Below the pieces are notes generated by a model that was given only the letters and a program-made list of their open reading frames with translations, was not told where the DNA came from and made no database searches. DNA of 64,000 nucleotides from an uncultured Gammaproteobacteria bacterium (GTDB lineage Bacteria > Patescibacteriota > Microgenomatia > UBA10105 > UBA927), in the NCBI GenBank assembly GCA_964356315.1, contig CAYHHA010000003.1, forward strand, positions 12,010 through 76,009, written 5' to 3'. The first letter of the stretch is position 1; every line of letters starts with the position of its first letter. Made by a program: the position numbers and the translations under genes. Shown here piece after piece: positions 15,001 through 26,283 of this stretch.

Positions 15001-18000
15001 ATAGGTTTCCCAAAATGACCTATATTCATCAGGAAGTTCATTTAATACTATTGCTAGCTTTTCTGGATCGTTAAGCTCATGTTTGAAGCCCCAGACAACG
15101 CTTATGTTACCGGCATTTGTTTCGTGCTTTATGATGGACGCAACCATTCCAATATATGGATCTGTACGAGAATTCTTTTGTGCAGTTCGCTCCTGGAAAT
15201 ACACTAGTCCTTCTTTTCCACCAAAAAAAGATCGTAAACTACGATAGTCACGATAATACCGTAAAAATTCATTCTCAGGTGTTCTAGGAGTAGCAAATAT
15301 CTCATCCTGTATAAATTCAGCTTCGTGACCAAGGAAATCCAATCCATCTGATTTTGCATAGGATAATAGATATGCTCGCTTTTTGGCCTTCATTTCCTCG
15401 CCGCCACTCACCAAGCCTAACTTCTCTCCGACCAGAATCAGATCCAACCGAATGCGATCTACGTTTTTCACTGGGATTCCATTAAGCATTCCAGCGCCTG
15501 TTACCAACCGATACAAATCATCGGCTAACCAAGCAGACTCATTCAAATCTCCTTTTTTGAACTCTGTGTACAATATTTTCTCTGCAAGCTGTATCTCGAT
15601 ATCATCCCGCGCTATCAAGTCCCTAATTAGGATCCAAATGCTATCTGTTAGAGACTCTAGTTTATACAATTCCTCTGCATATCTCATCAGCTTCACTGCA
15701 CGATCTCTATGGAGGAAAGCCCGTATAAAGCTAGGTGGAGTATCTATTGCTAAAAATATTTTATCCAGGTACGATTGAGGCTCGTTTGGAAAAATAGACC
15801 GCATGAGACCGATGAATTCCTCAGTGTTCGTGTCGAACTTCAAAACAGATCCATTTGGCGGATCCGTTTTCATCTGCCCTAGCACTGTATAGAATAACCT
15901 CGTCTGTTCGTCAGTAAATGTATTCAGAGTTGCGACAACCTGTTCCCTAGGTATATTTGGGTACGCGAGTAATCGATCTCGCATCAATTCCACCCTATAT
16001 GATGTTGCATTTTGTGCTATCTCTTTATTTGCAAGAAGCGTCGAGAGTGTTTTCGGTATAGAGAGTACGTTCGTAGTATGAATCAGGAATTCACTAACCA
16101 GATCGAAACCTTGAAGTAACGCATCACCTGATGGGATAGGATCGTCAAAATATACAAGCGTTTCAAGAATTTTTTTTCGTACCTCAGGAAGTATCTTATA
16201 TTGTTCGAATTTTTTATCTAATTCAACCGAAATTCTTGCTAACTCTGGAATATCTGATAATTTTAGTTTTAATTTTTTTTCACCTGTGTCTTCAATCAAT
16301 ACATTGAGCGAAATATGATTTCGAAGGGCAAACAAACTAGTAAGCATACCAACAGGATCTTCAGACTGTGGAGAATACCGAAGTGCTATAGAAAATTGTT
16401 CAGGGTCACTATGCTCAAAAAGACTCAATCCGTCTAAATACTCACTTTTATCCGTTGCCTGAATATATCCAGCTATCAAATTCTCCGCTTGCCCCTGCCT
16501 ACTCATAGATCCAAGTGTATCTACAAATATCTTATTTGACTGCAATGTGCCCTTCGCATACAGCTCTAGAGCGTGAATTTCTTCATCGGATAACTCCATA
16601 AACTTTTGGTAAGAATCAGGAGATACGATAGTTTCAAAGTAGTACTTCAAACCAAGAACCAAGCGTTTGTCGCTGAATTTTTTCACCTGCATCGCAAACA
16701 GCTCTAATTCATGATTCGGATCTTCAGAATTAAGAGCACGCAGAAGCATATTAATCTCAGCATTCCCAAAGACTTCCCAGTTGGTAAACCCGGCCTGAGA
16801 CAATGAAAACATCACTGTTTCAAACATCTCCGGACGTATAGACTGAGCCTTATGGATTGCATCTTCGGGACGATCTGAAAGCAGTATTGCCGCAAGCAAT
16901 TGTTCAGAGTACCACACCCGTACTGAACCAATACTCTTTATATGAAATTGTTGGAATGTCGGGGCGAGCTCTGCAAAATGCTCATGTATATATTCGATAG
17001 TTTTTTTCTGTATGCGGTCAGTTTGCGTATATAGAATTGGCAAAACTCTAGCCGTCCAGTCCATTCTATTGGAATACAATGAACTACCACGCAGAGGATC
17101 CAGCACATTATTTTTTATTTTCACCCGACGTATATCCCTATTCAGCAATGCAATTTCTGGTACCAGATGTTGAACATACAGAAGTCGTTCATATAATCCT
17201 GAATCATTTTTTATGTATCTATCCGAATCTGATATCAATCTATGAACAAATGCTAGTGGTACACCACTCTGGGTCAATCTCGTATGTACATCCATATATG
17301 CATCGAGAAACGTACCAATAGGAATATCTTTCCGATAGTCAAACATATAGCCTATATATGAGGCTAATGCGATTGTTTCGGTTGAAAGTAATCTAATAAA
17401 ACGGGGGTTTTTTTGCATATATACTATCAATTCCTGAAGCTTCTCTGGGCTTATATATTTTTGATAGTAAACCGAATCTATAAAATAACTCTGATTTTTA
17501 TAAAAGAAATTTGAAAATGCTTGTCTTAAATCCACATCCATCTTCTTGGGAAATAAACCTTGAATTGTTAAAATTTTTTGTAGGTAATTTTTCCCGTTTT
17601 CAGTAGGATTTCGAATTAATTCGGTTATATACTTTTTTCCATCTTCATCACCAAGAACCAAACTCCATGCGGGATGAATCAATGGAACTGAAAGTTCATC
17701 AGAAAGTGCAGTCAACGCATCTCGCTGTTCAAATGGCAAAGAGGATATATATTCATTTGTAGCTCTATAGGCATACGGAATTTCGATATTTTGTTGCCAT
17801 ATATTTTTACCTATTTTCAGTTTTTTTGCTTGTTGGGATATAACTACCCACTCTTGTGCTTCTCTAATTGGCATTCGCCAAGATCGAGCAACATCACTAC
17901 TCGGATCTACCCCTCTAGCATTGTGATACGCGGTAACAATTCGATTAACCAAAGTCCAAAACGCACTACATGGATTCCCGTCCAAAGCGTACACGGTTGG

Positions 18001-21000
18001 GAATATACCCATACCTGTTTTTGGAGTGCATGTTTTCGCTTTCTCCTCTACTCCTGCAACTGCTATTGAAATTTCTTCTGAGAGAGGCTTTGCTGCCGCT
18101 TCAAGAGGACCAACTACTTGGTCCTCTGAGGCTTGTTGTAATTCATTTGAAGTTTGGTCCATCGTGGTTGGTTTGCTTGATGAGGAGTCCTTCCCAGAGG
18201 GGGAATTTAAATCAGGTTTGGGTTGCGTACTTTTTGTTTGTCTCAGTAGTCTCGCTACACTATCAAGAATTACTTTTATTGGACGTCTGCCTCCTTGGGT
18301 TCTGATTATTGCCGCAGCGGATTTACTCTGTCCTTCAATCATTGATGCAAATTTATCCATAACCCCAAATGCGATTCGTTCGTCCACTGACCGAACTATG
18401 TTCAATGTTCCAACTTTCGTAACCATGTGTATGATTCGATTAATCCATACTGTTTGTTTCCGAATATCGGATAATTCCTGTGCTGTAAGTTGTGGAACAT
18501 ATGCTTCTAATTTTGAGATAGCAAATATAGTCTTCCCTACTACATCAGGTGGAGCTGTTGTTACGCGCTGAACTGATTCCACAAGTAATTTTGCATTTCT
18601 TCCAAATTCTCCTTGAACAAGCGGAATATCTTTCGGTGCATCTGTCCAGCCTAATTCAGACAGTGCACGAAACACCATTTCCTGACTTCCAACTATCAAC
18701 CCGCTTAATAGATTACGAATCGCTGGCATTTGAGACTTCTCTACTCGTTCATTTAGTCCAGCGTCAAGAATAGAAACGATCAGATCTTCACCTTGTGTTT
18801 CTACAAATATATTTCCTGGTTGCAAATCAGCATGTACATTGCCCGTATCAAGAATTTCTGAGAGAAATTCTTTCACGATAGCGGAATTAACCAATCGTAT
18901 TACTTGAAGCATTGACTGTTTTTGCTCCCCCTCAGACATGTGAGAGAACTCTTCTAAAATGCTGTCAAATCCCCGACCTAGAGCTATTTCTTCTAAAATT
19001 ACCACATTCGAAGCAAATAATATTTGTGGTACGTGAAGCGCTACGTGTGGGATTGAACCTCGAGCACTAATATCTGCCGATAGTGCCTCTCGAAATGCTC
19101 TTTCATTTTCAAACACTAATTCTTCTTCAATTGCAGATCGAATCTGACGAGCAAATCCTGCAGGCAATTGAGATGCAACATTTCGTTGAGATAAAAACCC
19201 AACAACCTCACCCAAAAGGTTTATATCATGATCGAGCGCTCCCGACTTTTGAGCTGACGGTCGTTTAAACTTCCCTATCACGTCTTTAGTCTGAGTAATA
19301 CCAAAACTATCTTCATATTCAATGGTAAGAATGATTGCTTGTTTATTTGACGCTGCCCCTACTAACGGTCCAAATTTCACAATCCGTACCGGACTATGTG
19401 GATCTAACAATCCAGAACTTTGCGCTAAAATCATAATAGCCCGCTTCGTTAACCGATCGGCTTGACTTTGAGCAGATCTCAACTCTACACGATACTCTTC
19501 AGGGACCCAAAGGGCTTCAGACAAACTTTGTGCAACTTTTTTACCAGCGACACCTAGTTGAGAAAGAAAAATGGATAGCGCCTTTGGCGTCGTCATATCT
19601 TTTCCTTCAGACTTCAACGCAATTGATGATTCGATAAGTTTTTCCACAATCTGCGTTGATCGCGCAGGATCAGCTTTTTCCAGCAAAAAGACGAAGAGAT
19701 CGCGAAAAAGCCCAGAATTCTCACCCTCTTTTATGAATGCTTTTGAAAGCTCTGTAAGAAACGCTTTTCGCTCTGTTTGCGCTTTTTCCAGGACGCCTTT
19801 ATCTCCTGATTGCTCGGCAACACGCAGATCCAAGATGCCCTCAGCGCCTAAGAGCAACCGATTTAGGAATATTGTTCGTTCATCTGGCGTAATTCCAGCA
19901 AACACTTCTATAAGTCTATTTGCAGATCCATCTGAAACTGACTCTATGAATTTCACTTTCCCAGGTTTTTCAGTCGTTAATTGCATGAGCCACAAGGCCA
20001 AGTCAGATCGTTCCTTTCTCAATCCCGCTGCAAGTTGCGTCATAACAAACACACTGGGGTTTGCCTTCATATTCCCATCAGAATCCTGAGCTTGACCTTC
20101 TTCAGTCACACGCATTGAAACGAGACGCTCCAACTGCTCAGGCGTCACTGAAGTGTTATTTTCGATTTGCTCAAAATAATAATTTCTTGCAACTGATGGC
20201 TCTGATAAATACGTCACTACCGCTCGTACCGCTGAGTCAAAATCCTGATAGAAATTTGGCGTTGTTTCAATCAAGAGACGCAACGCAATAATTCCATATG
20301 TTTGTTTAATAGATGAGTTTGGCGACAATATACTGAGAAGTTCAGAAATTCGAGTTAGAGCAACCTTTTTGTCTATTTTTTGATAATCGATTGCCTCTTC
20401 AATAAGAAATTCTACATATGCATCTCGTACAGGAGAAGCAACCGGTGAAAGAGATGTTAGGAGTTTTACCCGATCAGTAAAATTCGTTTGTGGATCAAAT
20501 AGTTCTTTTTCATGGAAAAACAATTGTTCTGCCAAGTATCTTTTAACAAATGGATCACGTTCATCATACCCATGGAAATATTCATCTTTAACACTATCGG
20601 CAAATGTTCTATACCGCATAAACGACATCCGTCGACGAACAAGATCACCCTGAATTTCAGCCATCTTTCCTTTTGCCTTTAGATCACTAGCTAGAGCAAC
20701 CATGTCACCACCGGTTACATCTGGACCATTTAATAATGATAAAAATCGCGCTGAAGCAGGAATGACTATTTGCCCTAATAGTGGTGATGTCGGAATTTCG
20801 TTATATATCACCAAAAGCTTATCACGCATTGAAGATGAGGTGAAATGTTGTTCGATCCAGTCTAGATAGGCAGTTTCATTTGGAAATTCACGAACTGATT
20901 TTCGAACGATATTCCAAAACTCGACAACCCGCGTATTTTCTGGCGTACGGGATCCGGGCGGAACTAGTGAAAGAAGTGTACATACTTCTCCGAGAGATAG

Positions 21001-24000
21001 ATCCCCATACATTGCTTGGTATCTTTCATCATAAAATGGGTGAGAATTTACTGAGGAAAATAATCTTCCCAATTCTTTTAATGTATCTGCTGATGCATAG
21101 TTCACTATGTCTATAAATACTGGCTTCTGTATCTTGACAGTAAATGTATCACTCCAAAAGTCTGGAACAATTCCATTTGATGTGAGAGTGTGAATTACTC
21201 TGATGATCTGCTGCTCTTCCTCCTTAGTAAATGCGTTAATTGTCTTTTCTTGCTCCTTTCTCTTCACGATATCAGGAATTGCTTGTAAAAAAAGGTGATT
21301 AAATATTTCATCTTTACGGACTCTTGCATTAATCTCTTCCCCTCTTTCTCTTTCTTTATACAGTCGAGCAAAAAATTTCAGTAATCGTTCAGTCTCACCA
21401 TCCGTTGAACTTTTTGATTTCTTAGCTAGATCAATAAATTGGCGTATCCGACCCTTTCCTTCCCATGGAGAATGATCATAAAGATAGATAAGATCGTCAG
21501 AGGATAACGATATAGAAAACTTACCCATGGATCGAATAATAGTAAGAATCTCGGAAGACGCAGATCCGTTTGCTCGCATCTGAGAGATATATGTGTTTAG
21601 GATATCTTCTCGTGAAGTCAAAAGAGCTTTAAATTTATCAACACCTGGGATATGTATGTACGGAGTCGGTGAATTTGTAAAAATATCAGTCGCTAATCCC
21701 CATTCTGATTCGGATAGGTTCAATAGTTTTGGATTTTCAAACACCGGGGAGATGTCACCTTCAGACACACCTCTTGAAATCAATTCCCACCCAAACATAG
21801 ACCTAAGTGCTTCTTCGTATTCGTGCACATAGTAATATCTATCAGATTGTTTCACGACAGGGACACCGTCAACCCGCTTCATCCTCTGTGAAGTTGACGG
21901 ATTTATTTTATCTAGAAGCGGATGGGTCATATATCCACGTGCTTGAGGAATTTCGAGTGCTTCCCTCGTTAAATCTCCATTTACAATAGTTCTCAGAGAT
22001 TCCATATATGATTTACCTTGTTCATGAGGGGAATTTCGCATAGGCAGTATTGGTGCTACTACGGATAATTTTTTATAGAGTGATGGGATTCTTTCCCTAG
22101 GATAGGCACGCAAAAATGCAAACCACTTTACCTCCCCTTCAGGGGATTGCATTATCCATCCTGCAAACGCTCGAGCCTCCTCAAGAGAAACGCCAGCTTC
22201 ATTCTGAATGAGGACGCTAAGAACCTGTTGAGCATCGGTATTCTCTGGAATTTGCTCAAGCAACCCAAACACTAGATTTGTAGCCGACGTACTCTTTAGC
22301 TCATGTATCGATTGTGGTTCTGAAATATCTTTTGTAATCGTACGTTCTGCAGGTAATCGCACCCCATTGTTGATTGCTATTTTTCGAGCTTGGTCATTTA
22401 AATACGAATTAACATGTTGTGAATTCTCTGGAAATGCTGTTTCAAGAATTGCTAAAGGTGGATCAACTTCATAATTGCCCACTTGTGTGTAATCTAGAAC
22501 AGACTGAAAAAATGATTGATTTTTTGTAGAGAAATTTGTGTTTGCTTTATTCTTTGAGATTAATTCGCTAATCGCCACGTCCAGTATTCTATTTAGTTCA
22601 GCTATATGTGCAGATATTTGCTGGACTTCGGCATCATTCACTCGCCCACTTGGTAATTGAGAACGATATACCGAGTCAACCATCAAACTACGTGTAATTA
22701 CATCATAGTAATTCATAGTCTTTGAATCATAAATTATACTGAGTATCTGACTTCGCATATGCTCTTTTATATTTGTAAATTTTGGAAAATCCACGATTGA
22801 ATCATCCAGAACCTGCAATCCAGATCGTAAACTTTGAAGAGCTATTAGTCTTCGAATCGTTGGTTGTAATTCATCATTAATTTTTTCTGCTATGCCCTTT
22901 GAAGCCTCGACTCTCTGTGCATGACGTTCAGCTTGGTAGTACAGCCAAAAATCAGTTATTGTTTCTGCCTTTCGCATTTTTTCCAATGCTTCACTAGATG
23001 ATAAGGTCGCCATATCATCGATGACATACACTTTCGACTCGGCATCAAACAATGCTAACAACCGTGGTGATAATTTCTGGGAGGTGTAAGTAGCAATCGG
23101 ATGCAGATCATCCGTTGCGGTCAATTCTAGATGCGAAATGCGATCTATAATTTCTCCATGACTCGAGCCCCTGTCAGTTGTTAATCCCATCGCCGTGTAT
23201 GCATCAATCATCGCCTGATAGTTATATTTACCGATGTTTGCCAAGAGCATCATTCCTTCTCGGTCTGCACGGAATTCTTCACTCGTGATGCTCGTCTTTT
23301 TGTTTGCAACATTAGCTAACCAATCTCCTGATTCACCCAACCGATCTTTCGTATCTTTGTGCATAATTTCGTGTGCAAATATAGCTGCGACATGGTCTTC
23401 TGTAAGCACCCTACCTTTTTTAGCGAGTTCACTTTTAATTTGCCTAATTAATCCTGTAGTCATAACAATTATTTTTTCTGTTTCATTTGCAATATGAAAC
23501 GCGTTTTGAGTGTCTGAATCCAACGCAATGATCTGATAATCGGAAGGCAGCTGAAGTCGCTTTGCTATCGCATGAAGTAGCTGAGTGAACTCATGGTCAT
23601 CGGGCAACGGTTCTCCCATATTCCATAACACTTGTTTCAAATCATCAGCTATTTGGAATCTATCGAGCCCACTAGCTTGAGTCAAACTAGATACATTTGA
23701 ATTAACGCTGAGAGCGTTTGGAGCAGTCTTTATATTTTTCAGAACAAGGCTTGACTCATTCTCGCTCTGAGGAATAGTACCGCTGTACATCGAACTCTCC
23801 AACTCTATGGCTTTTATAACTTCTTGAAGCAAAGATGCGGGAGGTGTTCGTGCTAAAATCGATGCCACATCATCATACTCTTTAACAATTGAGAACACCT
23901 CATCTCCACTGAGTGCATCAATGCGTTTTACGGATAGAATATCTTGTAAATACGGTAGTATTGCATCGAATAGTTGAATTGCCTGCGCTTGTAGTTTTGG

Positions 24001-24600
24001 ATCTGTTATCTCTCCTACTATTAGCGCTCTCCCCTGCTCACCCAAAAGTATAGATGCCTGTGTTATACGCACGGGCGCTTCTGATTGAAAATTTGATTGA
24101 GTCTGACTATCTCTCGTTACTCTTTGCATCAGAAATAATGAATTCCCTCTCAAAAACGTTGAAACGGAGCTCCATGGCCTTTCGGCGATAGCATTGGTAA
24201 TCCTATTCACGGTAAGCTCTCGATCCAATATTAGTTGTTGTGCACGTAATCTATCCTCATCCGTCATCTCAACACATTGATCTGTCGCGGCATACACCTT
24301 TGGAATAAATCGGTACGTTCGGATCACAGCAAATGGAGAGCCACAGCTTCCTGATTGCTGCAGCGCAAAGGCAAAGGAAAACAAAAATCCTGCGAGAAGT
24401 CCGAGAGAGCCGGGAACCATATGATTGCGAGTGAGCTTCGTAGTTTCGTAGCTTAGTAGCTTAGTAGAACGAGACATGGGACATGAGACATGGGAAGCGT
24501 AGCTTCGTAGCTTAGTAGAACGAGACATGGGACATGAGGCATGAGACAGGAAACAAGAAAAGCGGGAAACGTAGCTTCGTAGCTTAGTAGAACGAGACAT
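1..24600 (-). CDS. Giant multidomain protein A (≥8,160 aa, 3' end/C-terminus beyond window start); N-terminal repeat + signal-peptide-like segment; M48-like metalloprotease, ABC1/UbiB kinase-like, 3× SAM-MTase-like domains. Candidate start codons at 24600, 24528, 24477 (24420 less likely)
   Basis: Minus-strand frame hand-translated over 24,600→17,800, ~12,000–12,750 and 4,900→1 with no stop; the intervening stretches were not translated end-to-end. Only short out-of-frame ORFs appear on the track across 1–24.4 kb (no in-window stop, so the tool cannot report it). An in-frame stop (TGA) lies just upstream of ATG 24600. The protein reads MSRSTKLLSYETTKLTRNHMVPGSLGLLAGFLFSFAFALQ...; motifs are listed as separate features. 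Confidence 0.85.
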   Translation of the reverse strand, partial: MSRSTKLRSYVSRFSCFLSHASCPMSRSTKLRSYASHVSCPMSRSTKLLSYETTKLTRNHMVPGSLGLLAGFLFSFAFALQQSGSCGSPFAVIRTYRFIPKVYAATDQCVEMTDEDRLRAQQLILDRELTVNRITNAIAERPWSSVSTFLRGNSLFLMQRVTRDSQTQSNFQSEAPVRITQASILLGEQGRALIVGEITDPKLQAQAIQLFDAILPYLQDILSVKRIDALSGDEVFSIVKEYDDVASILARTPPASLLQEVIKAIELESSMYSGTIPQSENESSLVLKNIKTAPNALSVNSNVSSLTQASGLDRFQIADDLKQVLWNMGEPLPDDHEFTQLLHAIAKRLQLPSDYQIIALDSDTQNAFHIANETEKIIVMTTGLIRQIKSELAKKGRVLTEDHVAAIFAHEIMHKDTKDRLGESGDWLANVANKKTSITSEEFRADREGMMLLANIGKYNYQAMIDAYTAMGLTTDRGSSHGEIIDRISHLELTATDDLHPIATYTSQKLSPRLLALFDAESKVYVIDDMATLSSSEALEKMRKAETITDFWLYYQAERHAQRVEASKGIAEKINDELQPTIRRLIALQSLRSGLQVLDDSIVDFPKFTNIKEHMRSQILSIIYDSKTMNYYDVITRSLMVDSVYRSQLPSGRVNDAEVQQISAHIAELNRILDVAISELISKNKANTNFSTKNQSFFQSVLDYTQVGNYEVDPPLAILETAFPENSQHVNSYLNDQARKIAINNGVRLPAERTITKDISEPQSIHELKSTSATNLVFGLLEQIPENTDAQQVLSVLIQNEAGVSLEEARAFAGWIMQSPEGEVKWFAFLRAYPRERIPSLYKKLSVVAPILPMRNSPHEQGKSYMESLRTIVNGDLTREALEIPQARGYMTHPLLDKINPSTSQRMKRVDGVPVVKQSDRYYYVHEYEEALRSMFGWELISRGVSEGDISPVFENPKLLNLSESEWGLATDIFTNSPTPYIHIPGVDKFKALLTSREDILNTYISQMRANGSASSEILTIIRSMGKFSISLSSDDLIYLYDHSPWEGKGRIRQFIDLAKKSKSSTDGETERLLKFFARLYKERERGEEINARVRKDEIFNHLFLQAIPDIVKRKEQEKTINAFTKEEEQQIIRVIHTLTSNGIVPDFWSDTFTVKIQKPVFIDIVNYASADTLKELGRLFSSVNSHPFYDERYQAMYGDLSLGEVCTLLSLVPPGSRTPENTRVVEFWNIVRKSVREFPNETAYLDWIEQHFTSSSMRDKLLVIYNEIPTSPLLGQIVIPASARFLSLLNGPDVTGGDMVALASDLKAKGKMAEIQGDLVRRRMSFMRYRTFADSVKDEYFHGYDERDPFVKRYLAEQLFFHEKELFDPQTNFTDRVKLLTSLSPVASPVRDAYVEFLIEEAIDYQKIDKKVALTRISELLSILSPNSSIKQTYGIIALRLLIETTPNFYQDFDSAVRAVVTYLSEPSVARNYYFEQIENNTSVTPEQLERLVSMRVTEEGQAQDSDGNMKANPSVFVMTQLAAGLRKERSDLALWLMQLTTEKPGKVKFIESVSDGSANRLIEVFAGITPDERTIFLNRLLLGAEGILDLRVAEQSGDKGVLEKAQTERKAFLTELSKAFIKEGENSGLFRDLFVFLLEKADPARSTQIVEKLIESSIALKSEGKDMTTPKALSIFLSQLGVAGKKVAQSLSEALWVPEEYRVELRSAQSQADRLTKRAIMILAQSSGLLDPHSPVRIVKFGPLVGAASNKQAIILTIEYEDSFGITQTKDVIGKFKRPSAQKSGALDHDINLLGEVVGFLSQRNVASQLPAGFARQIRSAIEEELVFENERAFREALSADISARGSIPHVALHVPQILFASNVVILEEIALGRGFDSILEEFSHMSEGEQKQSMLQVIRLVNSAIVKEFLSEILDTGNVHADLQPGNIFVETQGEDLIVSILDAGLNERVEKSQMPAIRNLLSGLIVGSQEMVFRALSELGWTDAPKDIPLVQGEFGRNAKLLVESVQRVTTAPPDVVGKTIFAISKLEAYVPQLTAQELSDIRKQTVWINRIIHMVTKVGTLNIVRSVDERIAFGVMDKFASMIEGQSKSAAAIIRTQGGRRPIKVILDSVARLLRQTKSTQPKPDLNSPSGKDSSSSKPTTMDQTSNELQQASEDQVVGPLEAAAKPLSEEISIAVAGVEEKAKTCTPKTGMGIFPTVYALDGNPCSAFWTLVNRIVTAYHNARGVDPSSDVARSWRMPIREAQEWVVISQQAKKLKIGKNIWQQNIEIPYAYRATNEYISSLPFEQRDALTALSDELSVPLIHPAWSLVLGDEDGKKYITELIRNPTENGKNYLQKILTIQGLFPKKMDVDLRQAFSNFFYKNQSYFIDSVYYQKYISPEKLQELIVYMQKNPRFIRLLSTETIALASYIGYMFDYRKDIPIGTFLDAYMDVHTRLTQSGVPLAFVHRLISDSDRYIKNDSGLYERLLYVQHLVPEIALLNRDIRRVKIKNNVLDPLRGSSLYSNRMDWTARVLPILYTQTDRIQKKTIEYIHEHFAELAPTFQQFHIKSIGSVRVWYSEQLLAAILLSDRPEDAIHKAQSIRPEMFETVMFSLSQAGFTNWEVFGNAEINMLLRALNSEDPNHELELFAMQVKKFSDKRLVLGLKYYFETIVSPDSYQKFMELSDEEIHALELYAKGTLQSNKIFVDTLGSMSRQGQAENLIAGYIQATDKSEYLDGLSLFEHSDPEQFSIALRYSPQSEDPVGMLTSLFALRNHISLNVLIEDTGEKKLKLKLSDIPELARISVELDKKFEQYKILPEVRKKILETLVYFDDPIPSGDALLQGFDLVSEFLIHTTNVLSIPKTLSTLLANKEIAQNATSYRVELMRDRLLAYPNIPREQVVATLNTFTDEQTRLFYTVLGQMKTDPPNGSVLKFDTNTEEFIGLMRSIFPNEPQSYLDKIFLAIDTPPSFIRAFLHRDRAVKLMRYAEELYKLESLTDSIWILIRDLIARDDIEIQLAEKILYTEFKKGDLNESAWLADDLYRLVTGAGMLNGIPVKNVDRIRLDLILVGEKLGLVSGGEEMKAKKRAYLLSYAKSDGLDFLGHEAEFIQDEIFATPRTPENEFLRYYRDYRSLRSFFGGKEGLVYFQERTAQKNSRTDPYIGMVASIIKHETNAGNISVVWGFKHELNDPEKLAIVLNELPDEYRSFWETYATEPYLQAPLSQNGLEFYAKNKMSELTGDQKIAVFIKSEVESRNIDQVFRWFSGILAEAERKKRIFLELPLDTVILLRVHSELPSLRELFATKTPDEIVKIFQKEGKIEQFLAIEAMVDESGSLELQKLKTEIMESLLDLEQPLEAFRNIRTIFTQNNTPLIVKLFYVFNSLFPEAKFTPKADIGSPTLLSRTNDAHRRVLIWRDLLSAAVGSGNYELETYLVKLDAGLNVIEKYRSGKHLIEKERKLLKMTMVRLSTVAFVSKKERKPKNIFLNLGMIEDMTDKELQESVNTLYANLQIHPNQTLRERVNELFLIGPKNIGTNMGASLGEVVSKIRSSRIEADARNRAYAKQFGSKLFEAKKGDLIKGQLLVGQLSPSNFYGLLQRGPSMREALGGGYTEKDLTPFGLDLLRFEGDADISGVQLAMNALKGYGHLYVFVHPDGRLNDTGKATTSDPRPEMYITDVVKQDNMKHVDIRGALPSNLISAILLDPEIYTSGDTQKMIYSVIARNGYYIPIFDKDGKLIFTEDQYDTIRESYKGLPEFSGESLAVNTAIKSVSLQQDITTVVAQRDTKKEAQRMSVVRSNVLSIVGDILAKYKIPISGNEVGKVDLKDAVLEDIGSTGRGTNVSGDADFDYTLTLNQALVGKYGSQIAQDLRVAFSALGGQEIHDPLATGTSIQTRFTNVQFSGIEGVIDIDIGINSYIDLINLPSHAAVRRRLDSITEKKRNFVVANILVAKRILKEAKVYKKGTGAGGQAGLGGIGVENWILSNNGNLEIAMKTFWDAAHDPNGGVLTIDEFKGKYGIYDPGINLRGNSFDNYVMNLTESSYVKVLETIEPYVRGSEDTEGLNASINRVVSQFTDPNPVLGIWKKSEYSILPSDLGGGNEAMLVERTDKSKWYVKFQSPDAIASEVLMDSIYKRLGIPVVESTIVQVETENGVKIGRASRWVEESDPRIAEDYKNGFVLDAWLMNFDMKYEKNRKGAIRIDNGSSVLFKSLGERRQERFQTAQVTELISMLDGYPGLDTEAIVNQIDILVDTMTDQVLINLTEQSALRVVDKKKIAEVLIRRREYLRSYAAGLRAPEAENSITQDLPKKCSDCKLLVREIDGKMDEADVIQDEYLRESAYDQIFHTIMEHINDRGLNGKEKKNLALLYHKRAGAHSKLIVADGVITFKEGYENAKYWLMTLEATALLNWQPPTPERVSRYFNQFIKVLTEINSLNTSYEQALFSKPRTYIAQFSGYLKSFFVRFIQPIRSALPSTTKNRPAQTQVQIAAEPELPSSQNDVFASPTKSEITGPLAEFIPEGYPLLLLSGTSQKNAESVEELGFAEGTLTTSFSDTQSDRFALRPEGGALLVALRTPGVFETGEVPGGAGYPGQYFKVKPKTGSQREIQFRAESTDPLLGDDVKMITDKYVDPKNMGSMQLTSEQTTFIDFVDSILRGSYIRKFDRQKIQKLAQKWEKTGISLQVFKTVPIGAPQSVGMSDEDYLELYDAKQQEKTATLLNIPVADLESWDSFQKTVGEKFPTEDAFLEAVVEEFPGKISWQWKNIQLDDLSIIRAILLNLYQLQIIYSLESLYNKVEPAPFLIFPKGRSIAGYDAYVQRSKQGQSSSVDKQPSLDSTAVKDDDKSIGLPETSAQPVPADYRAFAQAHAQNVLNTEQITQVLDIIQAVLPSLQSGVVSEEDIVAFVVNPDVENPKALLIRKLFETGPPSLQKLLELEESSKYSRYFETKPLLQKTLQFIQENSRSTDAKAEFATAKNLEEAIVKDSDYIARIQSIPKYAHSGYIKGLIEDSLDIFIARKGVTFLTEKEKETIQNNLSSQYHRAMFRSFFQFLKQLGADAKDTSNQLTYLDMNTASRSERTLCRIELFWMKYIFPIYDPAGRYIAQKKPLKHMPSVGAKYHVTIGWFKNITFTLNSRGWDTDRDRGNYTDLLFADAKMLRKRTPGSTENMPTEQEVFADDQVVLDLGSGEALADVAFSRVYPKAKIIGIDFGYDTRKKVDITKRGLQLVKEDWFTLDGIPDNSVDTFLSNNGGMMHGLKEGEEKALQFINAVSRIAKNGARIISADVEGEYAELFSAYGWVEQNGILIKKNPVQENVPQQKSAVIEKETITKVAGDSMLIAQELVTSYLEESVKAGLSDKSTRESGATKYRAKNYLVFNIPQFSLQFSAYIAKHTQSLIYILKTYDNAIKNRMQGQKMASSQQQILLNQLLDSEKKPFFDIQHNPASFEEYLRSVYGKIANIHIESASIDDEIRRKVAEEVVKNAISDKRLRDELLALPTAELIEKMDQYSTLQREFLKGLNVSHIVIQTGNVTMRIPIMVTNMDAQSSFLKASQTFGVAIQTTINGEPRHMLFISDEFDNQGLVSALAFIAHEIDHAVTYSYQEQFLVHPNLNDEEKYIESIVDEMGGELAASRFLNTLADGMDQNSENELAAKVRLLDIEHQLQRQSIISTDDKYYSIGIMLGKALQKQLGDEKVLEFLHTSPVKRKIDSIREAISMAEAQIEKQKTIADAFLDTLESRGVEHELPLTQEAEDALQDVASNSNSPDAVSQAAHDDSASIGPLETVARTVAAKAAIAVEGVEDEAKSCIPTPGIGIFSTVYAVNGNPCTRFLTWVKRFITAYHKARGVDPSSDVARSWMMPFRGMMQFFSRTTLKVDGRNVVGNTQPREFSKSLFVTRDEALLGLESYHKMLVALPKTLAEKVQRYPRIRSLYSGVIPELEPEDIYQENGAYFTNEEARVIKNIMEKDKNYLFISDTSDAMYGSLINVRSVTRVINNNRDVFTEFKGIVDEKTVRDAINNNFNDLSKGEKRYGLISGFPRNAVNFNDNFTIIQKKVLRNFSPIKNDLWIVHDAIFLNKQYSKAELKLAAENSKLFTIEEIEILLKYRSVGGNSSFFGYFGFSDEDEQWARDLELLYREAVAVTYSGNIRYVLSYLHNAPVKASQDIFSVNLTGLSFSQKFMIQAERFWINRIFPLYDPVGNFILKSIALEPKENGSVKIPMGIFKRVTYTEAGRGLWSVVRNMTEYASLFRSRNLSAITSDADPAFASPTEQDVFKKGNVTLNLGSGLAVADLEFSRKYPDATIIGIDNGYEKQLPIDIHKPGLQLSKEDWNVLGGIPDNSVDTFLSYQGAMLHGTEIANEDPIKMISAVTRKAKMGAIILLDQLTSSQDFDPMYLDIFEEFGWDVYQDKTTERYIFQKTKSLSKYAHFLASFDYEKINSELLQISDERMRTRGFYNDLHLVMFQQYRKLFDLKDAGDVQINVIRKIIADILGEHDYRIIPAEIYKQEMGVMENIFMNMSSYLKNSANVDGTTQHQLNAMISQVVISQSELLAQGDVEVVMNIIKADQRYKDLTAGRGSPENDAIDAYIRKALEAKEKSPAPSDPLTKIPLLRGQNSISDELHRLYRPMTIEATQKETVRKINTRELTAIGSGGQRQVFDIGNNEVLKINIVTTTNQIQMLNEIAVMIADPYMKQFLKGWGMTEAGGYYIILSKAVSIVTISDYKTDQIIGLSDYQKILASISSANGVMEKERLMQKYFLTEGDLEQLPGLFALAKRYELFDFSTTQIGRSPDGRLMIIDLGVANFPEKESVIQEVIRVASKNSTEPIAPKDGSKPNSQQSVIQETGGGRCSDCSYIKLVTEKTLKEVDRLLERGKDSYKGQAVKKLEQLISYVLTDHAFDEDIIQSGLGMQIMERLGEAMQSPAGYEAALQFADSARKLTEAIFRSHEWELPEPSVLNDDEDQFLSFDSPNSFISPPYLNDTEALYGEFYLNLLTYIDTLTTDKGSVKPVTPSDTAYVQKILKKGAGYWLRTRFPWLRAEEKLIADLESKKITIDTTPKTKREAQVRAFGQLMRYLRSLIWPEKYTTFTYNGALFFIDPKTGNLALANAPGAIPGRILLGSDMQTGIWDARYILEDDIFEIGEGHRVTYSISRAPGGDELVLSKRSFKKAVTPDEQPSQDVWIPEDIELPGFDRAKFVGYTEMETTLPVAPLPYTSIWQYVWDIIDPQPIFTQYGNTTNRNASDYLSHLFNSSEEIQSIPFYASTGEQYLAREKPSAIFGGVDGFFTPGTRVLDDGAGEAVAIRQLEQQYRDRNISWVAADLNYSFDRQMTNRSGVQLVRDDWDSLAHIPNQSIDRIMSVQAIGKWGEWKTVQAIDRVARPGAILRFDYSKRDGSKIDFINELVRLGWDVYEEQSVITARKSTGKTPKTTDLVPIEVQTEKKKGCEIPFKAFVSRVFAQSASTGCVILSAGQTYTIKNETITIPVSGTYTLNGEKNEYVFDKDTQIKFDNDRTMMIVGTDITIVGSDIIPLSSLNKSVFDMMVVQDNSSAVLIGTNAKIHHEGNDWFVVIPSGAQNVLLNGTTVDSEKIQIHPNDVFEYNNQLFTFEEFGRNTVYLKRPVMAVGGLAYTHIASDLRDKVSYRSNGNAVFPETLMISRMNKLKIDELVPYWLTYDNMVNLSKLLNQYHDDSKIEVARKILEKDGIYGHAPSRGDKEEVMNGLRHTLEFGFRHNPGESLMYGEFGKAPIGESAGRFFEGYAVLMVLPKGVKMKDIIVKDEINGVDIIPPDALMFLVGSDYEAQAFVAWLLNDYYFRNGMNEANVNAFDWVSQHVISVDRVIELEKEGKSLRDISPVTEYLQQKKPVQEMNPGFVQKDSGCEAALNPFVSRVFAAGENCVFMAPGGEYFDGVTTVAIPTYGWYTTSGGSWGVITPSSKSIGVTKGETVTFRTIGRSETLDTATALLPRAYLSNFDAIAQRVASAQPALIQSGEFEKIVDMIPSDLEYKSLFSDRGPPEIATIKAYLLARIASIATSQATPATPPETQPLTRIQRLFNSLAMVFRRSNQGPSRAVTDVTTATYPDAPDDVHARQPAVSTELTADIRKILEDDLKKKGIINLPPAVHEELLRRLSNQMLNGILRKDLQSFDPADYEDIEIYGENGKALSLSQKKAMFMSIEQTYKKALPIYGVAWHVFQRKNPLYKALYFFDMEYLS
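2440..2800 (-). other. Class I SAM-dependent methyltransferase-like domain (copy 3) in giant A
   Basis: GTRVLDDGAGEAVAIRQLEQQYRDRNISWVAADLNYSFDRQ…QLVRDDWDSLAHIPNQSIDRIMSVQAIGKW. Confidence 0.45.
5640..5870 (-). other. Class I SAM-dependent methyltransferase-like domain (copy 2) in giant A
   Basis: GNVTLNLGSGLAVADLEFSRKYPDATIIGIDNGYEKQ…DWNVLGGIPDNSVDTFLSYQ. It is paralogous to copy 1. This is also the source of the look-alike + strand artefact ORFs at 5720 and 8882. Confidence 0.55.
7070..7330 (-). repeat. Intragenic dispersed repeat X, copy 2 (~80–85% nt identity to 17,882–18,140); encodes GPLE…GIGIF.TVYA.NGNPC…TAYH.ARGVDPSSDVARSW module
   Basis: Direct comparison gives 'gatcgagcaacatcactactcggatctac[t/c]cctctagc…' at 7,070 versus 17,882. 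The proteins also align. Confidence 0.7.
8890..9125 (-). other. Class I SAM-dependent methyltransferase-like domain (copy 1) in giant A
   Basis: ADDQVVLDLGSGEALADVAFSRVYPKAKIIGIDFGYD…DWFTLDGIPDNSVDTFLSNN. Motif I is VLDxGxG, motif II is IIGID, and post-II is D.SVD. Confidence 0.55.
12020..12480 (-). other. Possible atypical (lipid/protein) kinase-like segment in giant A
   Basis: …GGGNEAMLVERTDKSKWYVKFQ…DSIYKRLGIPVVE…NGFVLDAWLMNFDMKYEKNRKGAIRIDNGSSVLF. This fits a Lys – catalytic D..N – (I)D.G arrangement reminiscent of PI3/4K- or CotH-like atypical kinases. Motif-level only. Confidence 0.25.
17882..18140 (-). repeat. Intragenic dispersed repeat X, copy 1
   Basis: See copy 2. The two copies are ~10.8 kb apart within giant A. 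Confidence 0.7.
18650..19600 (-). other. ABC1/UbiB-family atypical kinase-like domain in giant A
   Basis: LGVAGKKVAQSLSEALWVPEEYRVELRSAQSQAD (ABC1 N-lobe LGP.fIKlGQ..StR.DllP.ey..eL..LQD); IVKFGPLVGAASNKQ (P.AaASiaQVH); VHADLQPGNIFV…ILDAGL (HaDpHPGNilv…IDfG). HADLQPGN lies at ~18,820–18,843. Confidence 0.6.
23128..23580 (-). other. Peptidase M48 (HtpX/Ste24)-like zinc metalloprotease module in giant A
   Basis: Translation …DSDTQNAFHIANETEKIIVMTTGLIRQIKSELAKKGRVLTEDHVAAIFAHEIMHKD…SEEFRADREGMMLLAN. It matches the M48 pattern NAFA…V.V.TGLL…E.EAV.AHEI.H … EF.AD. The HEIMH codons sit at ~23,359–23,373. Confidence 0.6.
24343..24420 (-). other. Signal-peptide-like / N-terminal hydrophobic segment of giant protein A (…KLTRNH-MVPGSLGLLAGFLFSFAFALQQSGS)
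   Basis: A positively charged n-region (K, R) is followed by a ~18-residue hydrophobic core and an A-x-A-like site (AFA|LQ). There is no lipobox. Confidence 0.5.
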
Positions 24601-24612
24601 GGGACAAGAAAC
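24434..24612 (-). repeat. Tandem repeat (units of 51 and 72 bp, core gtagcttcgtagcttagtagaacgagacatgggaca ×3) overlapping the 5' end of giant gene A; each unit carries an in-frame ATG (MSRSTKL[R/L]SY)
   Basis: Exact cores lie at 24,499–24,534 and 24,571–24,606, with a variant at 24,440–24,478. ATGs at 24477, 24528 and 24600 are all in frame, so the unit lengths are multiples of 3. Confidence 0.8.
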
Positions 24613-24699
24613 ATGAGACAAGAGAGTAGAAATGAGATGAAAGAATAGATGAAATAATTTCACGGTAATTACGGCGTAAAATAGCCTCAATTATCAGTA

Positions 24700-24735
24700 T
24701 GCAGAACCCCGTGAAATAGTGCAAGGGGTTATTAT
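24700..24735 (+). terminator. GC stem hairpin aaccccgtgaaatagtgcaaggggtt followed by ttattatatata (terminator-like on + strand; function unclear because no + strand gene lies upstream)
   Basis: Inverted repeat aacccc/ggggtt with a 14-nt loop and an A/T-rich tail. Confidence 0.2.
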
Positions 24736-24930
24736 ATATAAGTTGGTTAAGAAGCTTGGTAGCTTAGCAAATGGAAGTAGCTTAGACGGACAAAAAAAGC
24801 ATTTAGATTAGGATGAGAGTGAGCTTCGTGGCTTTGAATTTGGGGTAAGTAGCATGTAGTATGGAGAAAGGAGTACGACAATTCTCCCCTTATCCCTTAC
24901 TACATATACCGTACTACATTGCGGGATGTT

Positions 24931-25020
24931 GGATTTAGGATTTATGATTTAGGATTTTAGAGAGGCACAGGATACTAAATACTCGATACAAAATACAAGA
25001 TATTGGATTTAGGATTTAAG
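24931..25020. repeat. Dispersed direct repeat copy 1: (GGATTTA)n array + 66-bp core gatttaggattttagagaggcacaggatactaaatactcgatacaaaatacaagatattggattta + GGATTTA units
   Basis: It is identical to copy 2 (25,511–25,593) apart from one core mismatch and one extra heptamer unit. Confidence 0.8.
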
Positions 25021-25025
25021 AGTTC

Positions 25026-25050
25026 GAATTATGAATTATGAATTATGAAT
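25026..25050. repeat. Heptanucleotide tandem repeat (GAATTAT)3+GAAT
   Basis: Direct reading gives gaattatgaattatgaattatgaat. Confidence 0.8.
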
Positions 25051-25092
25051 AGTTGGGATACGGGAACCATAACGACAAAAACTATTCCATTT

Positions 25093-25110
25093 TGTCTACT
25101 ATAGTAGACA
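25093..25110. promoter_or_regulatory. 18-bp perfect palindrome tgtctacta|tagtagaca (candidate operator); third TGTCTA half-site at 25,127
   Basis: A perfect inverted repeat, with one additional half-site 17 bp downstream. Confidence 0.45.
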
Positions 25111-25424
25111 TTTTAGTGTTGTTTTTGTCTATACCACGTTGTATGAGGCATGTTATTTTTTCAGAAACACCAGTTTGTGACTGCAACGATGGGTATATAC
25201 CAAATCGAAGCAGTATATCAAGATGATCTTTAGGAGATGTTAGTGTATCAATGGGTATCTCCGAAAGTGCTAATGGGTAGAGAAAAAACTGTCGGATACG
25301 ACAAGTAAGTAGCTCCGGATCTTTTAAAGATACTCTATTACATTAATCTATAGTTCTATCAAATATCATGATTACGTTACACTATACGTATAGGTAATTG
25401 TCAATTTCTAACTAGAAAGACACG

Positions 25425-25480
25425 GCCAAAGCTAAGCTTTTTCGGCAGAATTGATCCACAAAGCTTAGCTTTTTCCGTTA
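25425..25480. promoter_or_regulatory. Pair of 13-bp quasi-palindromes aaagctAagcttt / aaagctTagcttt (mutual reverse complements) 33 bp apart, each followed by ttc(g/c)g
   Basis: Direct reading; a candidate paired regulator-binding site. Confidence 0.4.
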
Positions 25481-25510
25481 TGAATTTCAGAGCTATTTAC
25501 GCTACGCTTT

Positions 25511-25593
25511 GGATTTAAGATTTAGGATTTTAGAGAGGCACAGGATACTAAATACTCGATACATAATACAAGATATTGGATTTAAGATTTAAG
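25511..25593. repeat. Dispersed direct repeat copy 2 (580 bp from copy 1)
   Basis: See copy 1. Confidence 0.8.
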
Positions 25594-25644
25594 ATTTTGG
25601 AATACAGAATACTGTATACAAAATACTAGAATGGGGCGAGCGAG

Positions 25645-26283
25645 TCACCGTATGCTTTCTGACTGAAGAAACTGCTTGACAGTTTCATCCGGCACCTCAT
25701 GCCCTGGCATATACGTGACTTCCTCCGTATAATCAATATCGTCAAAATATCCCAGCTGTTCACGAAATAATTTCTCATTAAATTCGCCACCAAAAATCTT
25801 TCGACTTTGGCGTATAACATCCGCAAAAGGTATTGTTCGAAAGATTTGGTACAAATCGACGTAATCTTTCCATTTTGCACGTCTCGATAGAGCGTACGCC
25901 TTCATTGCGGATAGCGATAACAGGCTTGGCATGCCGATAATTCCGTCAAAATCGTCAGGACATTCGAGTGAAAATGGATACTGAAGAAATGTCCATTTCA
26001 CCCCTCCAAACGCAAGCGTCAGCTCCTGTTCCTCTGAAACGAGAATACTGTCGATGCCACCATGTTTCCTCAGGGTATCCTGGATGGCATCCCGTTGTAG
26101 AGATTCCTGTGTCATGCAGTCAAAATCCACGGAACGCCGGTGACCCAAATGAAGCGCAATTGCCGTTCCCCCGATAAGGCTGAAGGAATGACGAAACTGC
26201 GCAAGGACCGGAAGAAGTTTATATTGCTCTGGCGCTAAAATATCAGGATGCATAGGCTGTATAATATCTGGAAAAATACGCAA
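25645..26283 (-). CDS. AbiEii/AbiGii-like nucleotidyltransferase (DUF1814-type type IV TA toxin family) – 212 aa; alternative start at M11 (26253)
   Basis: LIGGTAIALHLGHRRSVDFDCMT matches the AbiEii GGTaL…R.SeDiDf nucleotidyltransferase signature. It overlaps the upstream small ORF by 41 nt. Confidence 0.55.
   Translation of the reverse strand: MRIFPDIIQPMHPDILAPEQYKLLPVLAQFRHSFSLIGGTAIALHLGHRRSVDFDCMTQESLQRDAIQDTLRKHGGIDSILVSEEQELTLAFGGVKWTFLQYPFSLECPDDFDGIIGMPSLLSLSAMKAYALSRRAKWKDYVDLYQIFRTIPFADVIRQSRKIFGGEFNEKLFREQLGYFDDIDYTEEVTYMPGHEVPDETVKQFLQSESIR

Follow-up and report, generated by a model that had tools for sequence, protein, structure and literature searches.

Gene order at the locus and a syntenic relative

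The stretch of DNA analysed here (64,000 nucleotides, referred to as the window) represents the reverse strand of NODE_68 from the ENA metagenome ERZ4201063, a contig of 123.7 kb in full. The window is almost all coding, and its gene content comprises two giant genes, an ATPase and a toxin-antitoxin pair. According to the gene calls, the genes around the spacer studied here all lie on the minus strand, and in the direction of transcription they are arranged as giant gene B, a DUF4143/AAA_14 ATPase gene, a small gene, an AbiEii-like gene, the spacer and giant gene A. The location given in the first-pass annotation, between the AbiEii-like gene and giant gene A, is correct, the spacer lying downstream of the former and upstream of the latter. 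The genes are:

1..24420, minus strand: giant gene A, runs off the window; 11,849 aa (35.5 kb) on the full contig, start called at ATG 24420
25645..26253, minus strand: AbiEii-like nucleotidyltransferase gene, 202 aa as called, 212 aa from the TTG at 26283
between the AbiEii-like and ATPase genes, minus strand: small gene, 86-92 aa
27900-26674, minus strand: DUF4143/AAA_14 ATPase gene
running off the right end of the window, minus strand: giant gene B, 14,806 aa on the full contig

The AbiEii-like protein matches Pfam PF08843 (E 5.8e-12, 46.5 bits, cut-off 22.5), and all its named homologues in the match table are from Patescibacteria or unclassified 'bacterium' MAGs. Relatives of the DUF4143 ATPase, about 60% identical, are spread across many phyla, and many of them are patescibacterial. 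Giant gene A had been taken for a 24-kb gene, which falls short of its length on the full contig. It encodes M48 peptidase, ABC1 kinase and methyltransferase domains, and its conserved hydrophobic N-terminus starts at 24417. An alternative genetic code, considered in view of a gene call longer than the listed open reading frame, was rejected: the giant gene B frame runs off the window, and the code is standard because three of the genes here end in TGA. Neither a tRNA or tmRNA nor a gene for a DNA-binding regulator was found in the window.

Homologues of the giant gene A N-terminus are scarce. Word-indexed searches with its first 1,000 aa and with a two-sequence N-terminal alignment gave no matches, and viral relatives of this N-terminus were not found. 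An exhaustive search returned no more than 34 representatives, all remote and aligned to the M48-like region, which leaves no further upstream regions to compare.

A search with the AbiEii-like protein yielded the only syntenic relative recovered, the 2.3-kb Logan contig L092. Its gene order is that of the window (giant gene B, small gene, AbiEii-like gene, giant gene A), with the DUF4143 ATPase gene absent. The AbiEii-like proteins are 84% identical, and the small gene and AbiEii-like gene together share 81% nucleotide identity with the window. The first gene fragment of L092 aligns with the giant gene B C-terminus (36% identity, E 1e-17), and the first 145 aa of its last gene match the giant gene A N-terminus (E 2e-19), an alignment that takes in the hydrophobic segment together with an SRDSQTQSN motif. 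A further AbiEii relative, L093 (68% identical), is not syntenic downstream. The distance from the AbiEii-like gene to giant gene A in L092 is only 134 nt, and the sole spacer block shared with the window is 24654-24736, aligned to L092 1839-1921 with 82% identity over about 83-84 nt. Upstream of this block L092 has 76 nt, the window ~900 nt.

Repeat anatomy of the spacer

The repeat-rich spacer comprises positions 24421-25644 (~1.2 kb). It is AT-rich (33-37% GC), and its sense strand is C-rich and G-poor over ~800 nt. Repeat density had originally been attributed to 24613-25644; the density was confirmed, but the left boundary has to be moved, since the repeats reach left to 24421. All of the repeats listed at that time are present, far beyond chance expectation. 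In the spacer, bases seven positions apart are identical with a frequency of 0.367 (lag-7 identity); the remainder of the window, cut into 46 pieces of the same size, gives 0.251 +/- 0.015. Lag 14 shows a corresponding pattern, and all but two of the 171 heptamer-periodic positions of the window (169) fall within kb 24-25. Over the whole window, arrays with a TRF score of at least 40 were detected only at 24434-25050. The density is unusual within the window. The arrays reported by TRF consist of GGATTTA (x3.9), GAATTAT (x3.6, 100% matches), GACATGG (x3.3) and GAGACAT (x3.9), and further of GATTTAA (x3.3 and x2.7) and GAATACA (x4.6); they are short, with about 2-4 units, and mostly imperfect. 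The heptamer AGCTTAG occurs eleven times in the window, eight times within the spacer and mostly in one orientation. From left to right the spacer contains:

24420..24640, minus strand: three tandem composite units of (CGTAGCTT)n octamers and (GACATGR)n heptamers, with spacings of 72, 51 and 57 nt; unit lengths 51-72 nt at 24420-24625, TRF period 51
24654..24736, minus strand: conserved block with a TATAAT box (24736-24731), a leader, GAGG (24688-24685) and the first conserved codons GTG AAA TTA from 24663
24917..25059, minus strand: heptamer mosaic copy 1, with GGATTTA units, the core (24946-25011), more GGATTTA units and (GAATTAT)3.6
25074..25129, unstranded: imperfect 56-nt palindrome centred on TGTCTACTATAGTAGACA, with the outer stem GACAAAAAC/GTTTTTGTC
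25289..25304, minus strand: small terminator-like hairpin of weak energy (z -1.7), followed by TTTTTTCTCT on the sense strand
25422..25478, minus strand: strong hairpin formed by a 13-mer pair, with 19-nt arms that are 89% complementary, 167 nt past the AbiEii-like stop codon
25503..25632, minus strand: heptamer mosaic copy 2, with GGATTTA/AGATTTA units flanking the GGATACT...AGATATT core (25519-25584), then GAATACA-type units

The two cores align over 66 consecutive columns (24946-25011 and 25519-25584) with one mismatch. A 56-nt core probe matches 24956-25011 with no and 25529-25584 with one mismatch, and no match was obtained in 100 shuffles. The similarity extends to ~90 nt at 94% identity (24935-25024 and 25508-25597). 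Of the earlier description, a 66-bp core present twice with one mismatch and 580 bp apart, copies and mismatch hold; the spacing is 573 nt start to start. The GGATTTA brackets reported to differ in unit number do so by one unit on each flank, the left flank containing four GGATTTA-type units in copy 1 and three in copy 2, the right flank two and three. In heptamer register the core reads GGATACT AAATACT CGATACA AAATACA AGATATT GGATTTA GGATTTA. Core and brackets are therefore not separate things but a single degenerate heptamer array, the core being continuous with its flanks. The edges of the duplication fade out within heptamer arrays and carry no inverted ends. The (GAATTAT)3 array listed previously is present with 3.6 perfect units at 25026-25050.

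RNA folding detected no structure in the duplicated 97-nt element on either strand (z 0.14 for copy 1, 0.04 for copy 2). A search of Rfam 15 with a permissive threshold found nothing, the sole match being to a plastid 3'UTR model (E 4.8, 23 bits compared to a gathering score of 54.3). A 22-mer of the core has no exact match in 185,579 species genomes and a 20-mer none in IMG/VR. Two JGI metagenome contigs that match the core 20-mer were dismissed as chance matches, since they have 60% GC and share nothing else. Other copies of the core or of the segment between the mosaics were found neither in the window nor in the loci fetched for comparison, and the whole spacer has no relatives in plasmid and phage collections, where only low-complexity matches of 34-35 nt were obtained.

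The spacer is stable across samples. No difference separates the consensus sequences of ERZ4201063 and ERZ4201064 in the 1,700 nt compared (100% identity), and a contig from SRR24858483, which belongs to a separate accession series, is likewise 100% identical at consensus level over 27407-25534, a stretch that spans the right-hand arrays of copy 2. Variation in unit number was thus not seen at consensus level in two assemblies and, over the part covered, in a third sample. Logan contigs from ERR3856787 and SRR24858483 both end at ~25534, inside the copy 2 core; this is expected of a sequence present twice and has no further meaning.

Two palindromic features lie between the two heptamer mosaics. 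The perfect 18-bp palindrome TGTCTACTATAGTAGACA at 25093-25110 is unique in the window, where 0.02 matches with up to three mismatches are expected, and a second TTTGTCTA lies at 25124-25131. Palindrome and extra half-site were both listed before and are both present, the half-site being part of the outer stem of the 56-nt palindrome. The latter has an RNA fold z of about -3.1 on both strands and is terminator-like on the plus strand only. In IMG/VR the palindrome has one 22-nt match, which is intergenic on an unrelated contig; about one chance match is expected for an 18-mer. The other feature consists of the 13-mers AAAGCTAAGCTTT (25428-25440) and AAAGCTTAGCTTT (25460-25472), exact reverse complements as annotated and 32 nt apart start to start. 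The 13-mer motif is unique to the hairpin site 25422-25478, which on the minus strand folds with a dG of -27.9 kcal/mol (z -5.5), a value reached by none of 200 shuffles. This hairpin is a candidate terminator or stabiliser of the AbiEii-like operon, and the small hairpin at 25289-25304 could act as a terminator as well. The 18-bp palindrome and the 57-nt hairpin, both far beyond chance, are likely to have some specific function.

The conserved block and the start of giant gene A

The block shared with L092 contains, in this order, TATAAT, AACCC, TTGCACTATTTCAC, a variable patch of 6-7 nt, TGCATACT, ATAATTGAGGCTATTTT and the GTG called as start codon in L092. At the position of this GTG the window has ACG (24677-24675), with a 1-nt indel just after, so the ancestral start is gone from the window. 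The block is the putative promoter and leader of giant gene A. A sigma-70 promoter scan returned three sites where 6.2 are expected. Both mosaic copies, the (GAATTAT) array, both palindromes and the unique inner segment are located within the ~900 nt of extra DNA upstream of the block. By this alignment, the ~900 nt of repeat DNA appears to be lineage-specific, the choice between loss in L092 and gain here resting on one relative.

Downstream of the block the alignment is interrupted by the tandem units. In L092 the residues V-K-L-Y run straight into the hydrophobic sequence RKTHLLF-VIPG; in the window ~230 nt of tandem units separate V-K-L-F from M-VPGS. Each unit contains an in-frame ATG (24600, 24528 and 24477), and two of the units differ by exactly three heptamers. 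Between 24690 and 24420 the giant-gene frame contains no stop codon, compared to four and three in the other two frames, and the spacings of the units are all multiples of three, for which the probability by chance is ~1 in 27, counting the spacings alone and in one genome. The open frame and these spacings suggest that the 24420-24640 block adds a translated extension to the N-terminus or is at least frame-constrained. The composition of the block is unlike that of the coding region, and no start codon with a good ribosome site is present in it. Giant gene A would start no further downstream than 24420; ATG 24267 is excluded, since conserved protein sequence sits upstream of it. According to the comparison with L092, its N-terminus would have been remodelled through in-frame repeat expansion.

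Origin of the repeat DNA and its relation to known heptamer repeats

The frequency of such repeats was assessed in 80 unrelated bacterial loci from many phyla (592 kb), which had been fetched for the ATPase gene and were not planned as a control. Among their tandem blocks, 29 have a period of 7, compared to 0-5 for each of the periods 4, 5, 6, 8, 9, 10 and 11. About half of the period-7 blocks are located outside long open reading frames, although such DNA makes up only ~15% of the 592 kb. Mixed AT-rich heptamer mosaics with a repeated longer core, closely resembling the present one, were found in several of the loci (L020, L040, L063 and L065); L063 and L065, which are related Elusimicrobia loci, show a threefold difference in array length at the same spacer.

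These observations agree with published surveys: in many bacteria no other long simple-sequence class is as abundant as the heptanucleotide repeats, which are enriched in intergenic regions and vary in length between relatives (PMC4679880, PMC4692102). Some genomes contain long intergenic regions with several kinds of heptamers that are absent in close relatives (PMC4679880). The spacer has the corresponding features: its 7-nt units are arranged head to tail, they are non-coding with the exception of the possibly translated 24420-24640 block, the array length differs between the two copies, and L092 is without the arrays. Non-coding tandem 7-nt units in mixed variants, with lengths differing between related genomes, also characterise the STRR of Calothrix and Nostoc, the GGGAATC arrays of Xanthomonas and the long-unit SSRs of prokaryotes. 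In contrast to the named STRR/SSR units, those found here (GGATTTA, GAATTAT, GATACA-type, GACATGR) are AT-rich, match none of them and form short arrays. The window also differs from the cyanobacterial hosts of STRRs in that HIP1 occurs only once in 64 kb and is not enriched, and in that the neighbouring genes resemble Patescibacteria genes.

Three systems in which heptamers or other short repeats lie upstream of genes were compared in particular. The TAACTGA repeats of marine Beggiatoaceae, some Cyanobacteria and Bacteroidetes are, like the arrays described here, intergenic direct heptamer repeats upstream of genes (MacGregor 2015, PMC4679880), but in most cases they sit directly at the start codon, in place of the ribosome site. 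The mosaics, by contrast, are separated from the promoter block by hundreds of bases on its upstream side; neither TAACTGA nor TCAGTTA occurs between 24267 and 25645. The heptamers at recF/recO of Nostoc PCC 7120 (bioRxiv 10.1101/2022.06.06.494920) share with the spacer that they are contiguous, close to a promoter and of unresolved regulatory influence. Those arrays consist of a single unit, lie within 30-100 nt of the start codon or -10 box and precede numerous genes. The present case is a single locus whose units are mixed and distant from the -10 box. The AGAT leader repeats of Moraxella catarrhalis uspA2, in the passage of PMC4679880 that describes them, likewise occupy the interval between one gene and a following large gene of surface or effector type, whose expression could in principle be tuned through repeat copy number; according to that passage they are long and differ in copy number between strains, while the arrays here are short and degenerate, and no polymorphism was seen among the samples.

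Taken together, we consider it likely that the spacer is mostly lineage-specific simple-sequence DNA, generated by slippage and one local duplication, with few functional elements in it. The heptamer arrays (GGATTTA, GATACW-type, GAATTAT, GAATACA and GACATGR) and those of the octamer CGTAGCTT would have arisen and decayed via replication slippage, and a stretch of array of ~90 nt would have been doubled, at a distance of 573 nt, through local duplication or unequal exchange. Slippage, already proposed in the first-pass annotation, is the natural origin to infer from the array anatomy and the differences in unit number, and passages in PMC4692102 and PMC4679880 give it as the accepted origin of such arrays. 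The repeats would have accumulated at one site between the end of the AbiEii-like (toxin-antitoxin) operon and the giant gene A promoter and leader at 24654-24736, and, preserving the frame, at a second site in the tolerant N-terminal end of giant gene A. In this scheme the hairpins at 25478-25422 and 25304-25289, the latter with its T-run, would stop the upstream transcript, and the conserved TATAAT box (24736-24731) would drive transcription of giant gene A. Probably only a few elements are functional, namely one or two transcript-ending hairpins and the block of TATAAT box, leader and ribosome site. Slippage does not account for the 18-bp palindrome, the 57-nt hairpin and the recurrence of AGCTTAG, which could be a binding motif rather than the product of mere amplification, and the C-rich, G-poor bias of the sense strand is not predicted by a purely neutral model.

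The first-pass annotation had read the region as iteron-like and operator-like control DNA. A working regulatory platform for giant gene A formed by arrays and palindromes appears rather unlikely to us. The heptamers could be read as DNA upstream of the promoter, with the 18-bp palindrome as a repressor operator; if transcription starts further upstream, the arrays would instead be present as unstructured, pyrimidine-rich RNA bound by a cold-shock/S1-like protein or Rho. The palindrome and the 13-mer pair are indeed unique and non-random, and a C-rich, G-poor and unstructured sense strand extends across the arrays. Roles for heptamers near promoters or start codons have been proposed in Beggiatoaceae (PMC4679880), and heptamers are reported to alter promoter responses in Nostoc (bioRxiv 10.1101/2022.06.06.494920). 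Against this stands L092, which keeps the giant-gene arrangement without any of the extra DNA. Moreover, the arrays are located 180-900 nt upstream of the TATAAT box and not beside the start codon as in the proposed cases, their units are heterogeneous and decayed instead of one repeated recognition sequence, and the window provides no candidate gene for a DNA-binding regulator. The description as iteron-like or operator-like is not supported in view of the single degenerate array, the absence of ~900 nt from L092 and the lack of an origin-like arrangement. Clearly unlikely is the insertion of a non-autonomous mobile element of ~0.5 kb (25032-25507) into a heptamer array, with a duplicated target at its ends. 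The 90-nt direct repeats do bracket a unique segment of 476 nt that holds two strong hairpins, the whole segment is absent from L092, and the neighbouring ATPase gene is missing there too, showing that the locus does accept insertions. However, terminal inverted repeats were not found, a target duplication of 90 nt is far longer than those made by transposases, and the longest open reading frames of the inner segment (57 and 34 aa, both with TTG starts) have no convincing coding potential. No other copy was detected in the window, in the fetched loci or by exact-word scans, in which the core words are unmatched save for the chance JGI matches; the repeat-bounded insertion suggested earlier is therefore not supported.

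Two related readings assign a switch to the repeats. It is very unlikely that the tandem units at 24420-24640 constitute a slippage-driven switch at the 5' end of the 11,849-aa gene, which has lost its ancestral GTG start. If this were true, gain or loss of one heptamer would pick the start codon and the N-terminus or silence the gene, and the cost of a 35-kb gene would become conditional. Phase variation more generally, in which gain or loss of a single heptamer toggles giant gene A by changing the promoter geometry or by a frame shift at 24420-24640, is very unlikely indeed; its frame-shift route presupposes a translation start upstream of the 24420-24640 units. The reading draws on a 7-nt unit that is not a multiple of three, on tandem units that occupy what is coding sequence in L092, with an open frame and spacings in multiples of three, and on the unit numbers that differ between the two mosaic copies. 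Yet no difference was seen between the two assemblies, compared over 1,700 nt, or in the third sample over the part covered, and this identity argues against frequent phase variation, which had been raised as a possibility. The arrays, with 2-4 imperfect units, are expected to have low slippage rates, translation lost through a frameshift could be restored from one of the in-frame ATGs (24600, 24528, 24477 and 24420), and the large mosaics lie outside any promoter spacer, upstream of the TATAAT box. A replication origin with iterons, of a plasmid or a phage, would fit direct repeats in AT-rich non-coding DNA (33-37% GC), but we give it almost no credence. Iterons are typically 17-22 nt long. 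Here only two long copies, 573 nt apart, are present, and the short units of 7 nt are not iteron-sized. In addition, the GC skew has the same sign in all 16 bins across the 64 kb, no initiator gene is among the genes of the window, and relatives in phage or plasmid collections are lacking. The anatomy already contradicts an iteron origin.

Compared to these alternatives, the spacer looks like an ordinary lineage-specific case of intergenic heptanucleotide repeats, with no dedicated control region. Dense direct repeats and palindromes in front of a very large gene can mimic elaborate control DNA, and such regions should be interpreted with caution. The comparison with L092 suggests that nearly all of the spacer DNA is dispensable and recently expanded, and that the conserved control block measures only 83 nt. 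This 83-nt block at the left edge of the spacer is the element worth annotating. The frequency of period-7 blocks in the 80 loci suggests that heptamer mosaics are common background in uncultivated bacteria, which fits the earlier surveys.

Giant genes A and B and their order

Two very large genes, A and B, are arranged in tandem on the minus strand, each of them running off the window, and between them lie a DUF4143/AAA_14 ATPase gene, a toxin-antitoxin pair and a repeat-rich spacer. The gene order giant B / antitoxin-like gene / AbiEii-like gene / giant A is retained in a syntenic relative, the 2.3-kb Logan contig L092, whose AbiEii-like protein is 84% identical.

Giant genes, the ATPase gene and the portions found in the relative (positions in the window unless stated)
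1-24420, minus strand: giant gene A (11,849 aa on the full contig)
26674-27900: DUF4143/AAA_14 ATPase gene, with giant gene B on one side and the toxin-antitoxin pair on the other
27928-64000, minus strand: giant gene B (14,806 aa on the full contig)
3-782 of L092: portion of giant gene B
1897-2331 of L092: portion of giant gene A

In both proteins only a few domains can be recognised: an M48 peptidase, an ABC1 kinase and a methyltransferase in A, and in B a PP2C and a GNAT domain. When the first 1,200 aa of giant gene A were used as query, an exhaustive search returned only 34 representatives, all of them remote.

Giant gene B contains a 551-bp direct repeat (47074-47624 and 52618-53168, 98% identity, 5.5 kb apart), by which a segment of approximately 180 aa is encoded twice; this repeat could be a genuine recent internal duplication or else an effect of the assembly. 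Two repeats in giant gene A, one of 205 bp (79%; 7052-7256 and 17864-18068) and one of 218 bp (68%; 5576-5792 and 8873-9089), are older internal duplications. Also within the coding sequence of giant gene A, at 5969-5988, is AAAATCCCCATGGGGATTTT, a perfect 20-bp palindrome and the longest of its kind in the whole window.

The start of giant gene A and the adjoining spacer

In the relative, giant gene A begins at a GTG located 7 nt past a GAGG. Since the window has ACG at this place (24675-24677), followed directly by a 1-nt indel, giant gene A must start elsewhere. Candidate starts are GTG 24663, ATG 24600, ATG 24528, ATG 24477 and ATG 24420, and a good ribosome site was found at none of these five positions. 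Gene callers placed the start differently in two assemblies, at 24420 in one and at 24663 in the other.

Between 24300 and 25300, the sense (minus) strand of the spacer is markedly rich in C and poor in G. Plus-strand GC skew ranges from +0.2 to +0.37 in the spacer versus about -0.1 in the flanking genes, and the switch is sharp, occurring between about 24200 and 24500.

The perfect 18-bp palindrome of the spacer (25093-25110) is matched exactly over 22 nt, TTTGTCTACTATAGTAGACATT, by the IMG/VR viral contig IMGVR_UViG_3300022818_000194 (L085, 3331-3352), which is otherwise unrelated to the window; the match falls in an intergenic gap. About one chance match is expected for the 18-mer; in the viral contig four additional flanking bases match too.

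Heptamer arrays and the DUF4143/AAA_14 ATPase gene

Tandem periods were counted over 80 unrelated loci, all flanking DUF4143 ATPase genes. Period 7 was by far the dominant one, with 29 blocks compared to 0-5 for the other periods in the range 4-11. Heptamer tandem arrays are present in loci L014, L017, L020, L026, L030, L040, L042, L043, L051, L063, L065, L066, L077 and L084, and in L063 and L065 they lie on either side of the ATPase gene. The arrays may be linked to this gene or may just be widespread in the genomes concerned.

The syntenic relative lacks the DUF4143/AAA_14 ATPase gene at the corresponding place, where 91 nt separate the stop of giant gene B from the small gene. A gene has therefore been either gained or lost at this site in the recent past.
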